Shown one piece after another: positions 4,868 to 29,542 of a stretch of DNA of 42,278 bases (the first letter of the stretch is position 1; each line of letters opens with the position of its first letter). Position numbers and translations under genes: made by a program. Origin of the DNA: a virus; IMG/VR virus record IMGVR_UViG_3300045988_021594; one strand, written 5' to 3'. The notes beneath the pieces are model-generated. The model had not been told where the DNA came from, made no database searches, and worked only from the letters and a program-made list of their open reading frames with translations.

Positions 4868-4897
4868 ATAATCTAACAAACAATCTAACAAATCAAT
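4868..4897 (+). repeat. attP arm repeat, copy 2 (ATAATCTAACAAACAATCTAACAAATCAAT)
   Basis: Direct repeat of 4675-4703; it overlaps the integrase stop codon. Confidence 0.6.
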
Positions 4898-6026
4898 ACT
4901 TCATTTTTTGCATTTCCCGCAACAGATAAGCCGGGTCATTGTGGGAGACGTACTTGTTGGCTGTGGTGGAGAAATTTTTGTGACCCAAGATTGCCTGCAC
5001 GGCGGTCTTTTCCAGGCCGCACTCCACCATCTTGCTGCTGGCTGTATGGCGCAGCGTGTGCGGATGCACGCCCTCTATATGGCATTCCTGCATCAACGCC
5101 CGGAACTTTGTAGCCACGTTACGCTTGTCCAGCTTTGTGCCGGCTTTGGACGGTATCAGCCATTCACACCCGCTGTCCATCATCCAAAAGGCAATGATCT
5201 TGTAAATGGGCTCAAGGATGGGGATGATGCGGTTCTTGCCCGCTTCTGTCTTTTCACCGCCCTGCATGTACCGCTCTTTCAGGTGCACGTCCTCGCAGCG
5301 CATGGAAAGCAGCTCGTCAATGCGCATACCGGTATAAAGCAGCACCATTGCGATTTGCGCCGTCTGCCCAAACTTTGGGTCGTCTTGTCGGCCGCTGATC
5401 CGCTCGATCTCTTGGGCGGTCAGGGTGCGTTCTTCCTTGCCTGTAGCCGCTGGGAGCTGCAAGAGCATAGCATAGTTTTTGTTTATGATGTCCTGCGCCA
5501 TAGCCCACTCGCAGATCTGGCTGAAAAGTGTGCGCTGCTTTTCGCAGGAGCTGCGTGAAAGGCCCTTTTCCACCATTGCGTCAATGACCTGTTGATAATC
5601 TGCCGCTTTCAAGTCCCGCAATTGTCGGTCGTATAGCGGCGCAGCCTTTGCATAGGCCAGCTCGTACCCCTTTTTCATGTCAGTACTGAGCTTGTCAAAC
5701 TTGGGCTGCACTTTCCATTGGGCGTAGGCATCCGCAAAAGTGCATTTCAGACGCGCTGCGGGGGTGTTCTGGGCGTTGTAAGCGTCCAGTGCTTGTACTG
5801 CTTCGCCCGGCGTCGCAAACGTCCCCAGAACGTCTCGCTTGGCTGTCAGGGCCACATACGGCTTTGACCTCGTCCCGATCAGTTTATAAACGCTGCCGCT
5901 GCCCTTTGGGCGGCGGCGTTTTTTTCTTTGCTGCGGGGCGGCTTCCGGCTGCTTCTTCCCGCACCACGGACAAAAAGAAGCACCATCCGGGATCTCTTTC
6001 CGGCAGCATGGTCTCACGCATTTCAT
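4893..6026 (-). CDS. int: Tyrosine recombinase (phage integrase) with an N-terminal Cys4 zinc ribbon
   Basis: C-terminal HPHTLRHT, LGH and NKYVSH motifs match the R-H-R-Y catalytic set. The N-terminus reads CVRPCC...CPWCG. It lies adjacent to attP. Confidence 0.9.
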   Translation of the reverse strand: MKCVRPCCRKEIPDGASFCPWCGKKQPEAAPQQRKKRRRPKGSGSVYKLIGTRSKPYVALTAKRDVLGTFATPGEAVQALDAYNAQNTPAARLKCTFADAYAQWKVQPKFDKLSTDMKKGYELAYAKAAPLYDRQLRDLKAADYQQVIDAMVEKGLSRSSCEKQRTLFSQICEWAMAQDIINKNYAMLLQLPAATGKEERTLTAQEIERISGRQDDPKFGQTAQIAMVLLYTGMRIDELLSMRCEDVHLKERYMQGGEKTEAGKNRIIPILEPIYKIIAFWMMDSGCEWLIPSKAGTKLDKRNVATKFRALMQECHIEGVHPHTLRHTASSKMVECGLEKTAVQAILGHKNFSTTANKYVSHNDPAYLLREMQKMKY

Positions 6027-9832: not shown

Positions 9833-10312
9833 CGAAAAACGCCCGAACAGAAATCGGGACGTCCGAATGCTATTGGTAACCTTGCAATTACATAATAGCA
9901 CGTTTTGTGAACATTTGCAACAGTATTTTGACACGGCGACAAGAAAAAATCTGCCTGTGGTCGCTTCACAGACAGACTTTTCACCGATTTGTCACCAGAA
10001 CGCACCTGCACCCCGGCGGTAATGCAAACATGCGCGTTTGCACGTCTTTTGCGCCATGCGCGGCGCAAAAGTAACGCCCGGGCTGCAAAAACAACTTGCA
10101 GGGCTATGGGTACGCCGCTTCCTTTGGCGGGTCGGCACCGCCTTGTAAGCCCTAGCGCTTCACGCACTTGCTCGTGTCTGGAACTGGCTGGCTCAAAAGT
10201 TTGGTCATCGAAATCACCTGCCTTTTGAATCAGTTTAACTAGGAGCCTTGAACAGTATAGAAAATCGGTGCGCCGTTGTCAATTTATTAACACATAACAG
10301 GGAGGTGGAAGA
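9833..10312 (+). promoter_or_regulatory. Long ORF-less structured 5' leader (or candidate ncRNA) before the Cro-like gene
   Basis: Hairpins lie at 9843-9858, 9868-9900, 10023-10042, 10046-10071 and 10126-10142, with an enclosing GGGCT/AGCCC pair at 10101-10152. No credible ORF is present. Confidence 0.4.
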
Positions 10313-21145: not shown

Positions 21146-21580
21146 GGATAGGCTAAAATAATTACAAGCGATTCAGCGCTTTGAGCGCGACGCTTGCCAC
21201 GCAGCCTCCGAAACGGTTCCACCCGGCGGGTTTTCATGCTTTCCCGTTCCTTCCCCGTTTCGTGGGCTGCTTCTATGTGCGAGATTCCGAAACGGCTCCG
21301 CTCAGAGCTGCGCAACTTTGAGCGAATGGGGAAGGTTCGAGGCTTTCCTTTCCGCGCGGTTTGACTCCGCGATCTCGCCCCACAACGCGGGGCAGCTGTA
21401 CCCGCAACCGCATGACGCATGGGGCCCATCACCCCACCGGCAACACCTCCTTTCTGGCTTTTTCTTCTCTATGTCACACGCATTTTTCCATAACAGCAGA
21501 GCCGGAATCCTAAGCGCGCCGTTCCTTGCGCGCCGGATGTGCGTCAACAAAGCCCCGAGACCGCAAACCAGGGGCTTTTT
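21146..21580 (+). ncRNA. Candidate ~430-nt non-coding transcript (or a long 3' UTR)
   Basis: An extended -10, TGtTAAAAT (21131-21139), lies upstream. The terminator GCCCC (21552-21556) / GGGGC (21571-21575) plus TTTTT lies downstream. There is no credible ORF, and TCCGAAACGG(T/C)TCC is repeated at 21207 and 21286. Confidence 0.3.
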
Positions 21581-21592
21581 CAATGCTATGTG

Positions 21593-21663
21593 GCCGCCTG
21601 AGCGCAGTTTGGAGCGCGTGTCAGCTGAAATATTGCTGGCTGGTTCGAGCCCTGCAAGCGGCA
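21593..21663 (+). other. Degenerate tRNA-like element (pseudo-tRNA)
   Basis: The acceptor pairs 6 of 7 positions, the D-arm GCGC/GCGC is intact, and the T-arm and 3' acceptor are 22/22 identical to the tRNA at 29518-29539. The anticodon arm does not fold, and the element ends ATAT instead of CCA. Confidence 0.55.
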
Positions 21664-22252
21664 TATTCGATATTCTGACCGTTCGGATTTTCCGGGCGGT
21701 TTTTCTTTTGCACGGGAGGAGGAGCCCGCCGTGAGATATGGTGTGCCGTATCGTGGCAGTAAGAACAAAATCGCACAGTGGGTTGTCTCTAATCTTCCTG
21801 CTGGCGACACGCTGATTGACCTGTTTGCTGGTGGTTGTGCGGTCACGCACGCGGCATTACTGTCCGGCAAATGGAATTGCATTGTAGCAAATGACATTGG
21901 CGATGCACCGCAGCTGTTTATGGATGCTATTCATGGCAAGTATGCCAATGAAAAGCGCTGGATTAGCCGTGAAGATTTTCACCGTCTGAAAGAATCCGAC
22001 CCTTACGTTTCACTTTGCTGGAGCTTTGGAAATAATCGCACGGATTACCTCTACTCAAAAGAGATTGAACCGTGGAAAAAGGCTTTGCACTATGCAAGAG
22101 TATTTGGCGATACATCGCTTTTGCGTGAGTTCGGAATCAATTCGGACGGAAGTTCAAAGGACATCAAGCTAAACAACGGTGAATACAAAAAACTCTATTC
22201 ACAGTGGCTCGGACATCAAGCAAAACATAAAAGGCCCTATGATTTAGAACAT

Positions 22253-22342
22253 CTTGCAAGGCTAGAGAATCTTGAGCGCTTGCAGAATCTTGAGGGTCTG
22301 CAAAGGCTTGAGGGTCTGCAAAGGCTTGAGGGTCTGCAAATG
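22253..22342 (+). repeat. 18-bp in-frame tandem repeat within the methyltransferase (5 units; 2 exact, 1 differing at one base and 2 degenerate)
   Basis: CTTGAGGGTCTGCAAAGG lies at 22289, 22307 and 22325, with degenerate units at 22253 and 22271. It encodes the LEGLQR heptad-like run. Confidence 0.9.
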
Positions 22343-22389
22343 GATTACAGGGACGTACAAATTTCGTCAAATGCAGTTGTGTACGCAGA

Positions 22390-22397
22390 CCCCCCCC
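22390..22397 (+). repeat. Homopolymeric C8 tract at the frameshift point
   Basis: Read directly as GAC CCC CCC CTA TAA. Confidence 0.95.
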
Positions 22398-22643
22398 TAT
22401 AAACGAACGAAATGTACGGGATACAAATGCGATTTTGACCATGAAGCGTTTGAAAAGTGGCTTTCGGAAGTTCCGTTTATGGTGGTTGTCAGCGAGTATG
22501 AAGCGCCAAATGGATGCTTGGAAGTTGCAAGCATAAAGAAGCAATCTTCTATGGGCACTGGGAATAAAGGCGGGTCTAACACTGAAAAACTGTTTGTTCA
22601 AAAGCGATTTGTCGAACAGTATAAAAATTCATTTACATGAGAG

Positions 22644-23120
22644 GTGGTGGCGGTGAGTGCGAAGCGGCTGACAGACAGGCAAAAAAAGAAGATCGTTGCT
22701 GACTATGTGCAGCTGCAAAGCTACGCCAGAGCCGCCAAGCTGAACGACGTGGCAGAAAGCACCGTGCGGAAAATCGTGAAAGATAATCCCAAGTGTGCGG
22801 ATTTGTGCGCCTTAAAAAAAGAGCAGAACACACAGGACATGCTTTCCTACTTAGGCAGCAAGCGCGGGGAAGCACAGGATCTCCTCGGGCTGTACCTGAA
22901 AGCGATGGCAGATCCGGACAAAATCGCGGAAGCAACACTGCCGCAGCTGTCCACGGCGTTTGGCACCATCGTGGACAAGTTTGCTATGCTGGGAGACCAG
23001 AGCGGCATAGAAGCCCCGGACGATGGGCTTGTGGAGGCACTGAGCGCCGCCGCAGACCTCAGCCCGCCTGACGATGTGGATCTTCTGCCAAAGGAAGAGG
23101 ACGACCATGCGGAAAAGTAA
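22644..23120 (+). CDS. terS: Terminase small subunit (start may be the GTG at 22653)
   Basis: N-terminal HTH-like region LTDRQKKKIVADYVQLQSYARAAKLNDVAESTVRKIV and an acidic C-terminus. It lies directly upstream of terL and overlaps it. Confidence 0.7.
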   Translation: MVAVSAKRLTDRQKKKIVADYVQLQSYARAAKLNDVAESTVRKIVKDNPKCADLCALKKEQNTQDMLSYLGSKRGEAQDLLGLYLKAMADPDKIAEATLPQLSTAFGTIVDKFAMLGDQSGIEAPDDGLVEALSAAADLSPPDDVDLLPKEEDDHAEK

Positions 23121-24354
23121 CGGTTTTCGATGGAAAGCCCTCAGCCAGCGGCAAAAGCAGGTCCTGAGCTGGTGGACACCGCAGAGCGCATACAGCGGTT
23201 ACAACGGCATCATTGCTGATGGCGCTATCCGCTCGGGCAAGACCTTTGCCATGAGCTTCTCTTTTGTCCAGTGGGCTATGACCTGCTACAGCGGGCAGCA
23301 GTTTGCCATGTGTGGCAAGACCATTGCCAGCTTCCGGCGCAACGTGCTGGGCACACTCAAACAGCAGCTTGCGGCCCGTGGCTACAGCGTCAAGGAGCAT
23401 CGGGCAGAAAACTGCATGACCGTCAGCAAGAGCGGCAGAACCAACGAGTTTTACTTTTTCGGCGGCAAGGACGAGAGCAGCCAAGACCTGATCCAGGGCA
23501 TCACGCTGGCCGGGGCATTCTTTGACGAGGTGGCCCTGATGCCACAAAGCTTTGTCAACCAGGCCACGGCCCGCTGCTCCGTCACCGGGTCAAAGTTCTG
23601 GTTCAACTGCAACCCGGGTAGCCCACAGCACTGGTTTTATCTGGAATGGGTGCGGAAATGCCGCTCCCGCAAGATGATGTATCTCCACTTTACGATGGAT
23701 GACAACTTGTCACTTTCCGAGGACATCAAGGCCAGATACCGCAGCCAGTACAGCGGCGTTTTCTACCAGCGCTACATTATGGGCCTGTGGACAGTGGCAG
23801 AGGGCCTTGTATATGACATGTTCGACCCGAAAAAACACGTCATTGACGTGCTGCCGGAGCTGTCCCCCAAGAGCGCCTATGTGGCGTGTGACTTTGGCAC
23901 CCAGAACGCAACGGTGTTCCTGCTGCTCCAAAAACAGGCAGATGCAGACTGCTGGATCGTCACCCGGGAGTATTACTACAGCGGGCGAGAGCAGAAGCGG
24001 CAAAAGACCGTGGGAGAGTATGTTGCAGACCTCAAGGCGTGGATGAATGGTCTCAAGCCGGAGAGGATCATCGTTGACCCCTCTGCCCTGCCCCTGATTA
24101 CGGAACTGCGCAAGAATGGCTTTACCCAGACCCCCGCAAACAACGACGTTCTGAGCGGCATTCTGGACGTGCAGACCATGCTGCAGACCGGGCGGCTGAA
24201 GATCTACAAAGACTGCAAGCACACGCTGGAAGAGTTTGGCGTGTACGCTTGGGATCCGGACAAAGACGACACCGTGCTGAAGGTCAACGACCACTGCATG
24301 GACGCTATCCGTTATTTCGTGCGCACAAAGCGCCTTGTGAAACTGAGGGATTGA
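23107..24354 (+). CDS. terL: Terminase large subunit (PBSX/XtmB-like)
   Basis: Walker A reads DGAIRSGKT, and the Walker B-like motif is AGAFFDE. Nuclease-region motifs include VNDHCMDAIRY. Start is M12 of track ORF 23074-24354. Confidence 0.9.
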   Translation: MRKSNGFRWKALSQRQKQVLSWWTPQSAYSGYNGIIADGAIRSGKTFAMSFSFVQWAMTCYSGQQFAMCGKTIASFRRNVLGTLKQQLAARGYSVKEHRAENCMTVSKSGRTNEFYFFGGKDESSQDLIQGITLAGAFFDEVALMPQSFVNQATARCSVTGSKFWFNCNPGSPQHWFYLEWVRKCRSRKMMYLHFTMDDNLSLSEDIKARYRSQYSGVFYQRYIMGLWTVAEGLVYDMFDPKKHVIDVLPELSPKSAYVACDFGTQNATVFLLLQKQADADCWIVTREYYYSGREQKRQKTVGEYVADLKAWMNGLKPERIIVDPSALPLITELRKNGFTQTPANNDVLSGILDVQTMLQTGRLKIYKDCKHTLEEFGVYAWDPDKDDTVLKVNDHCMDAIRYFVRTKRLVKLRD

Positions 24355-29466: not shown

Positions 29467-29542
29467 GCCGCTTTCGCACAACTGGTAGTGCTCCCGGCTC
29501 ATAACCGGGCAGTTGCAGGTTCGAGCCCTGCAAGCGGCACCA
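29467..29542 (+). tRNA. tRNA with anticodon CAT (elongator Met, or Ile2 if modified with lysidine)
   Basis: Full cloverleaf folded by hand: acceptor GCCGCTT/AAGCGGC, D-arm GCAC-AACTGGTA-GTGC, anticodon arm CCCGG-CTCATAA-CCGGG, variable loop CAGTT, T-arm GCAGG-TTCGAGC-CCTGC, then A-CCA. Length is 76 nt. Confidence 0.9.

Follow-up and report, generated by a model that had tools for sequence, protein, structure and literature searches.

A cytosine tract of variable length in the catalytic-motif codons of a Dam-like methyltransferase gene from a temperate gut phage

The stretch of DNA analysed here, IMG/VR virus record IMGVR_UViG_3300045988_021594 (42,278 nucleotides, one strand; the whole of it is called the window below), belongs to a temperate gut phage. 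It contains a gene for a Dam-like DNA adenine methyltransferase of the D12 class, which is split by a run of eight cytosines (C8) lying exactly at the codons of the catalytic DPPY motif. Comparison of related genes indicated that this tract is a real slippage hotspot, by which the gene appears to be toggled among near-identical genomes. It was considered probable that the C tract is a de facto contingency locus giving rise to an on/off polymorphism of phage DNA adenine methylation.

Direct reading of the window showed that the initial annotation had described the split gene accurately in all details. The sequence for which a run of eight Cs had been claimed reads GTG TAC GCA GAC CCC CCC CTA TAA, with the eight Cs at 22390..22397 (plus strand). 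The homopolymer lies in GAC CCC CCC C, across the D-P-P codons of the catalytic DPPY; the count of eight includes the C of the Asp codon GAC, and it is one C above the in-frame C7 of most relatives. The 5' open reading frame (ORF; 21731..22402, plus strand, 223 amino acids) starts with GTG and is preceded by a Shine-Dalgarno-like GGGAGGAGGAG (21714..21724, plus strand, from direct reading), which ends 6 nt before the start codon. It encodes the YRGSK motif (as YRGSKNK), the AdoMet motif I DLFAGG, the target-recognition region, a hexapeptide array and motif IV D-P-P, followed by Leu and a stop, and in the ORF list it ends with ...VVYADPPL and the stop, as had been stated. When one C was deleted, the frame continued as DPPYKRTK... 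for the 81 codons that had been predicted (Tyr to stop inclusive), giving an ORF of 302 amino acids, ...VVYADPPYKRTKCTGYK..., with a TGA stop at 22638-22640. The 3' part of the gene (22398..22640, plus strand, +1 frame), from the Tyr of DPPY to the TGA, was thus an open frame covering the C-terminal half of the catalytic domain, and a tblastn search with the repaired protein aligned residues q184-302 to it in frame 3. The nearest in-frame relative, locus L099 (same contig as L054), showed 99% identity over q201-302 by tblastn.

In the window as it stands, the intact DPPY motif and the C-terminal half are therefore not found in a single frame; its gene is a D12-family member in disrupted form, made intact only by removal of one C. 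Judged by the precedent of the Dam family, the 223-residue product could not be an active methyltransferase, as it is devoid of the catalytic Tyr and of everything past motif IV. Since the whole C-terminal half of the Rossmann domain is missing along with that Tyr, methylation should be off in the window allele.

The assignment to D12-class N6-adenine methyltransferases, made from the motifs alone, was substantiated by profile searches. The repaired protein matched Pfam PF02086 (MethyltransfD12) with 53 bits against a cut-off of 22, the match spanning residues 7-248 of the one-C-deleted translation, and it also matched PHROG 56 (DNA methyltransferase); a precomputed PF02086 assignment was present on relatives. 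DLFAGG and PYRGSK were invariant across 43 homologs and were aligned to the motifs of T4 Dam. T4 Dam was also the sole sequence-level relative of the repaired protein in the PDB (phmmer E = 0.054), in an alignment that took in the Y-x-G-x-K, DLFxGG and VYxDPPY motifs. The structure was modelled with AlphaFold (AF2) on P0001, a 92%-identical full-length relative, and the model was of moderate quality (pLDDT 65). The top Foldseek matches of this model were EcoDam (2g1p), T4 Dam (1yf3) and DpnM (2dpm), with E values of 9e-6 to 6e-5 and TM scores of 0.35-0.5, which is consistent with a Dam-like fold for this relative.

Homologs of the protein number in the thousands, and the protein is well conserved among them. 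The closest ones were 85-92% identical and 284-325 amino acids long, single-frame and with DPPY; such full-length forms were the majority. The related contigs came from human gut samples. A scan of GTDB representative genomes gave no relative above 67% identity, and the matches were in scattered taxa. From the GenBank phage collection, only two short unannotated fecal scaffolds were matched at the DNA level, and there was no match above 33% identity at the protein level. The number of GATC sites in the phage was unremarkable (147 vs 136 ± 11) and gave no hint of specificity. Two-piece methylase matches in Bacteroides and Lactococcus phages were considered as frameshifted genes and rejected, as they were two adjacent, separate methylase genes. 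Three alternative C-termini were observed among relatives: ...YKNSFT followed by a stop, ...YKQMMGRF followed by a stop, or an extension of 19-20 residues, ...NSFNMRGGGGECEAADRQAKKEDRC followed by a stop. The last one runs into the start of terS, so that both where the gene ends and how far it overlaps terS vary (region 22620-22700 of the window).

To characterise the tract among relatives, 76 viral loci, 11 metagenome loci and the window were compared, giving 48 distinct alleles at least 80% identical. The idea that tract length might differ between related phages was borne out by a real polymorphism (C6, C7, C8, C9 and C10), in part on otherwise identical gene backgrounds. The in-frame C7 (GAC CCC CCC) was found in 23 of the 48 alleles. 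In a further 18 of 48 the tract was interrupted by a synonymous change (CCCCCT, n = 11; CCCCCA, n = 3; CCACCC or CCTCCC, n = 4), and all of these were in frame; CCACCG or CCACCA was present in more distant relatives. Seven pure-C alleles were out of frame, namely C6 (L044), C8 (the window, L046, L047 and L050), C9 (L045) and C10 (L055). Frameshifts at this site were limited to uninterrupted tracts, since 7/30 pure-C alleles were out of frame vs 0/18 interrupted ones (Fisher p = 0.028).

The variation in length was observed between genes that hardly differ otherwise. No mismatch was found across 733 nt of the gene among L013 (C7), L046 (C8) and L055 (C10), nor across 6.9 kb between L046 and L055, and only 1 nt differed in the gene between L045 (C9) and L017 (C7). 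Length polymorphism among close genomes, as known from contingency loci, was thus above the background of substitutions. The off products were also found in the protein database: P0049, P0131, P0077, P0135 and P0146 end with DPPL and a stop, and P0059 and P0151 continue as DPPIN..., which corresponds to the C6 frame. P0146 and P0059 differ by 1 amino acid in 216, and P0135 and P0151 likewise by a single residue; C6 was found in the scan of L141, the locus of P0059. Because C6, C7 and C8 sit on backgrounds 0-1 residues apart, it is suggested that tract length has changed recently and frequently, and not through old decay. When the tract was reset to C7, an uninterrupted frame was obtained in 8/9 off alleles examined. 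The exception was L055, which has a second lesion, a 1-nt deletion 45 nt upstream. The tract is hence a repeat within the ORF whose length shifts the frame (C7 in; C6, C8 and C9 out), and the restoration of 8/9 off alleles by tract length alone is an indirect hint of reversible switching.

Several observations weigh against a contingency locus, and a part of them bears on whether the variation is biological at all. The explanation competing here is a sequencing or assembly indel, in which the phage would truly be C7 with an intact gene and the extra C would be a consensus error. Indel errors classically occur at homopolymers, and the frame downstream of the tract is perfectly intact, as this explanation predicts. 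Exact look-ups of the truncated methyltransferase, TerL and TerS of the window matched nothing, so that no independent copy of exactly this genome was available, and the C8 of the window itself could still be a consensus error. In a DNA-pattern scan of a second metagenome collection, 11/11 matches were in frame. Moreover, L045 had changed in length at both of its G/C runs of at least 7. A G7 run (Glu-Gly-Gly-Arg codons) was observed in a PAPS-reductase-like gene (phrog_424) at ∼600-625 of L017 (ORF 17-1084), where the gene is intact; the same run was G8 at ∼570-600 of L045, where the gene is split. Either L045 is a homopolymer-error-prone assembly, or two accessory genes slipped independently.

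Nevertheless, an indel error was considered unlikely as the explanation. The off lengths recurred in many independent assemblies from IMG/VR, ENA and Logan, amounting to the 7/30 pure-C alleles given above, and the rate of short-read consensus errors at a run of 7-8 nt is expected to be far below that. Three contigs, which come from at least 2 different SRA runs and have another phage backbone, carry the off protein P0077, and its C8 tract was read in one of them, L139. Other runs at the same loci were stable: the A7 runs at 22681-22687 and 22814-22820 in the adjacent terS were invariant in 16 and 19 distinct contexts, and the C6 runs elsewhere in the loci were all invariant. Length variation was counted at 6/34 for the tract vs 0/35 for the control runs (p = 0.011). 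In addition, the C8 tract was the only G/C run of at least 6 in the 42-kb window. CCCCCC/GGGGGG gave 3 overlapping matches, all of them in the tract, vs 21.2 ± 5.9 expected from dinucleotide-preserving shuffles, and a C7 run would be unsurprising in random sequence of the composition of the window (5.2 matches expected). Such an absence would be expected if runs that are truly mutable were selected against in genes that the phage needs, and it disfavours sequencing error, which could not explain the missing G/C runs of at least 6 in the rest of the genome. The recurrence of the off lengths across assemblies, the invariance of the A7 and C6 controls and the avoidance of G/C runs of at least 6 together argue that the variation of the tract is mostly biological. 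As an observation on the whole window, G/C homopolymers were strongly avoided outside the methyltransferase tract.

If the C8 allele is real, the full-length enzyme might still be made from it, either through a +1 shift of the ribosome on CCC-C or through transcriptional slippage on the C run. In CCC CCC CUA UAA, a slippery Pro codon is followed by a rare Leu codon and then by a stop; CTA is the rarest Leu codon of the genome (18/605 Leu codons), and this arrangement resembles known +1 sites. However, most relatives are single-frame, with C7 or an interrupted tract, and the off alleles C6, C9 and C10 would require different shifts. By direct reading, a Shine-Dalgarno-like stimulator was not found upstream of the tract. 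A shift site with a two-frame architecture, conserved as that of prfB is, was absent, 40/48 alleles being single-frame. Since most relatives are single-frame and the off tracts differ in length, there is no conserved recoding site here; programmed frameshifting was rejected on these grounds, and full-length production from the C8 allele was regarded as highly improbable.

The initial annotation had further supposed that placing the tract in the Pro-Pro codons of the active site was an economical design for a switch. This part was not upheld, as the tract is not kept as such: it is interrupted in the 18 of 48 alleles mentioned above, and its third positions are not extra conserved. The remaining points against a selected switch belong here. 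In the Pro-Pro pair, the two third positions had major-allele frequencies of 0.92 and 0.71, vs a mean of 0.83 at 71 four-fold sites in this alignment. Because this conservation is no greater than that of other four-fold sites, the tract appears to drift like any synonymous site, and because CCC makes up only 24% of the Pro codons, nothing seems to hold it in place. CCCCCC was used at 0/12 other Pro-Pro pairs in the 27 putative window genes sampled. A repeat held by selection beyond neutral expectation, as expected of a contingency locus, was thus not observed. The tract is also short: phase-variable tracts validated in Helicobacter methyltransferases have 10-13 bases (PMC6362088), compared with the C7-C8 found here. 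Furthermore, the gene was broken by other routes in relatives. P0121 (6 contigs) is truncated after residue 162; P0124, P0150 and L037 have frameshifts at A6 runs (in L037 at ∼3786, A6 to A5); P0141 (9 contigs) terminates early after DPPY, ending with ...TGYKRF; P0157 has APPY for DPPY, a D-to-A change, and P0148 has an internal deletion. Evidently, loss of methyltransferase function is tolerated, and at times it may be favoured. As judged from these comparisons, the tract behaves as an accident of codon choice, carried by some lineages and lost by others, and does not seem to be kept by selection.

These breaks by other routes, the second lesion of L055 and the lack of a selection signal at the tract would also fit a plain pseudogene, that is, a dispensable moron-like gene that is being lost, with the tract as the likeliest first hit and reversion without any role. 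The low GC content of the gene (44.8% vs 53.5% for the genome) and its different positions between backbones, as in a cassette, point in the same direction. Set against this, 40/48 alleles are intact, the protein is well conserved over thousands of homologs, 8/9 off alleles are free of a second lesion, and C6, C7 and C8 occur on backgrounds 0-1 residues apart. Simple decay was hence judged rather improbable, somewhat more so than the indel error above, and the contingency locus was retained as the preferred reading.

According to the mechanism we propose for the contingency locus, an orphan methyltransferase gene of the D12 class, resembling Dam and T4 Dam, stands at the head of the packaging module, and this lineage encodes the Asp-Pro-Pro of the motif, by chance, as GAC CCC CCC, which makes a C7 homopolymer. 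Polymerase slippage (slipped-strand mispairing) would add or remove Cs far more often than point substitutions build up. A slip at the active-site codons would shift the frame, C7 being on and the +1 allele C8, as in the window, being off. A further slip could restore the gene, since most off alleles differ from the on allele in tract length alone, and the population would hold both states. On alleles would methylate phage DNA late in infection, which might protect it from methylation-sensitive (classical) restriction-modification; off alleles might escape methylation-dependent restriction, or save cost. We infer that the switching is reversible and that the on/off state and the selective trade-off matter to the phage.

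The position of the gene was informative about the DNA that is likely to be methylated. The order of genes is a regulator (20607-21104), a gap of 626 nt, the methyltransferase, a putative terS, terL and an SPP1-type portal. The ORF taken as the small terminase gene terS (22644-23120, plus strand) was assigned by position only, and Pfam and PHROG searches with it gave no match; the large terminase gene terL (23074-24354, plus strand) matched Pfam Terminase_6N. The initial annotation had likened the tract to those of phasevarions, in which a methyltransferase controls a host regulon, and for this no support was found, as the gene heads a late packaging module upstream of terS, terL and the portal. 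Because of this placement, methylation of progeny DNA fits better than control of a host regulon: the arrangement points to an enzyme that is expressed late with the packaging genes and acts on progeny DNA, and control of a host regulon appears unlikely from the gene position. In L139 (3001-3654), the same gene (89% identical, also with C8) was located between a T7-type large terminase and the portal, in a different backbone. The low GC content and the different positions in different phage backbones suggest that the methyltransferase is a mobile accessory cassette.

The stretch of 626 nt between the regulator and the methyltransferase (21105-21730) had no convincing ORF; it may serve as the leader of a late operon, as an antitermination target or as a pac region. 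A terminator-like hairpin with a T-run (21677..21701, plus strand) was found at its end by consensus scan only, 30 nt ahead of the methyltransferase start codon. The second gene upstream of the methyltransferase encodes a radical-SAM domain protein (19667-20593, plus strand; phrog_9298, E = 8e-98) with a CxxxCxxC-like motif, for which a Pfam search gave no match. The window also encodes a tyrosine integrase (4893-6026, minus strand), an antirepressor and a RusA-like resolvase. In addition, an Rfam FuFi-1 RNA match was observed at 9945-10167 (minus strand) in the early/lysogeny region, with 68.7 bits vs a gathering score of 59.6, and a tRNA-Met (CAT) gene at 29467-29542 (plus strand) among the structural genes.

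The tract was not the only part of the methyltransferase gene with a changing length. Just upstream of motif IV, an in-frame array of 18 bp per unit (22256..22342, plus strand) encodes the hexapeptide repeats ARLEN LERLQN LEGLQR LEGLQR LEGLQM; TRF reported a period of 18 with 3.3 copies at 22281-22340. The array, also located in the corresponding region of L002-L127, was 11, 17, 23, 29, 35 or 41 residues long (2-7 units) in 39/48 alleles, and in the other 9 it was not delimited by the pattern. There are 5 units in the window, compared with 7 in L054, its nearest relative. L045 and L017 are two units apart, yet only 1 nt is different elsewhere in the gene. Related L-Q/E-x repeats were present in more distant homologs. 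The array region was of low confidence in the AF2 model, which was thus uninformative on it. From these comparisons, the hexapeptide array is a second fast-evolving element of the gene. A more far-reaching proposal would combine both elements into a two-layer hypervariable epigenetic module, with the poly-C tract as a high-rate, reversible bet-hedging switch and the 18-bp array tuning activity or specificity; the off state would then be of advantage where the host has methylation-dependent restriction, and the on state where it has classical restriction-modification. This proposal is speculative, and we doubt that it holds in full.

Loci of this kind have been described in other phages. The A-run in agt of T2 is a phage contingency locus that toggles DNA glucosylation against TgvAB and McrBC (Gomez, Barrick and Waters, bioRxiv 2025, 10.1101/2025.10.21.683753). 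The same work cites a polyG tract in a methylase gene of Bordetella phage BPP-1 (Liu et al. 2004, as cited in 10.1101/2025.10.21.683753) and polyG tracts in receptor-binding genes of Campylobacter Fletchervirus phages (Sorensen et al. 2021, as cited in 10.1101/2025.10.21.683753). At these loci, as at the present one, a mononucleotide run in a phage gene leads to frequent frameshifts. The likeness to T2 agt extends to the kind of product, a DNA-modification enzyme, and in T2 the on/off state trades sensitivity to different restriction systems. In contrast to T2 agt, the present tract is poly-C within the catalytic codons of an adenine methyltransferase, in an uncultured temperate gut phage, and is known by sequence comparison alone.

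In bacteria, slippage of simple sequence repeats within ORFs switches methyltransferases on and off (PMC12707154; PMC13076061), and the phase-variable ones include Type III mod and Type I hsd of Haemophilus, Neisseria, Helicobacter and Moraxella, and Campylobacter cj0031. Compared with these phasevarions, the phage gene encodes an orphan Type II-like D12 enzyme and stands with packaging genes; its tract is short (7-8), falls within the gene's 3' third and is no better conserved than expected under neutrality. With E. coli Dam, T4 Dam and DpnM the protein shares the Pfam family, the motif order (Y-x-G-S-K, FxGxG, recognition region, DPPY) and the fold found by Foldseek. It differs from them in its very low sequence similarity and in the extra, variable hexapeptide array before motif IV. 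PamA, a prophage Dam-like methyltransferase of Staphylococcus aureus, affects the host (Ulrich et al. 2025, as summarised in PMC13076061). Both PamA and the present protein are orphan adenine methyltransferases of temperate phages, and the latter, like PamA, could methylate host DNA; unlike the present gene, PamA is not described as slippage-controlled in the summary given in PMC13076061.

As it stands, the finding is an expected type of event in a known type of gene. The on/off hotspot is real and recurrent and of a known kind, and what sets this case apart is that the codons of the catalytic motif themselves make up the run, a placement to be expected from the codons for D/N/S-P-P. As the codons of (D/N/S)PPY can form C7-C8 runs, a latent slippage site may exist at the active centre of any amino-methyltransferase. 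For annotation, this means that split methylase genes may be real off alleles and not errors. Phage DNA-modification contingency loci have so far been shown experimentally mainly for T-even phages. If high-rate flipping in vivo proves true, the tract would exemplify a contingency locus in a phage DNA-modification gene that occurs naturally and can be seen in metagenomes; in the human gut, the adaptation of phages to the restriction systems of their hosts could then be followed with the length of the C tract as a simple marker.

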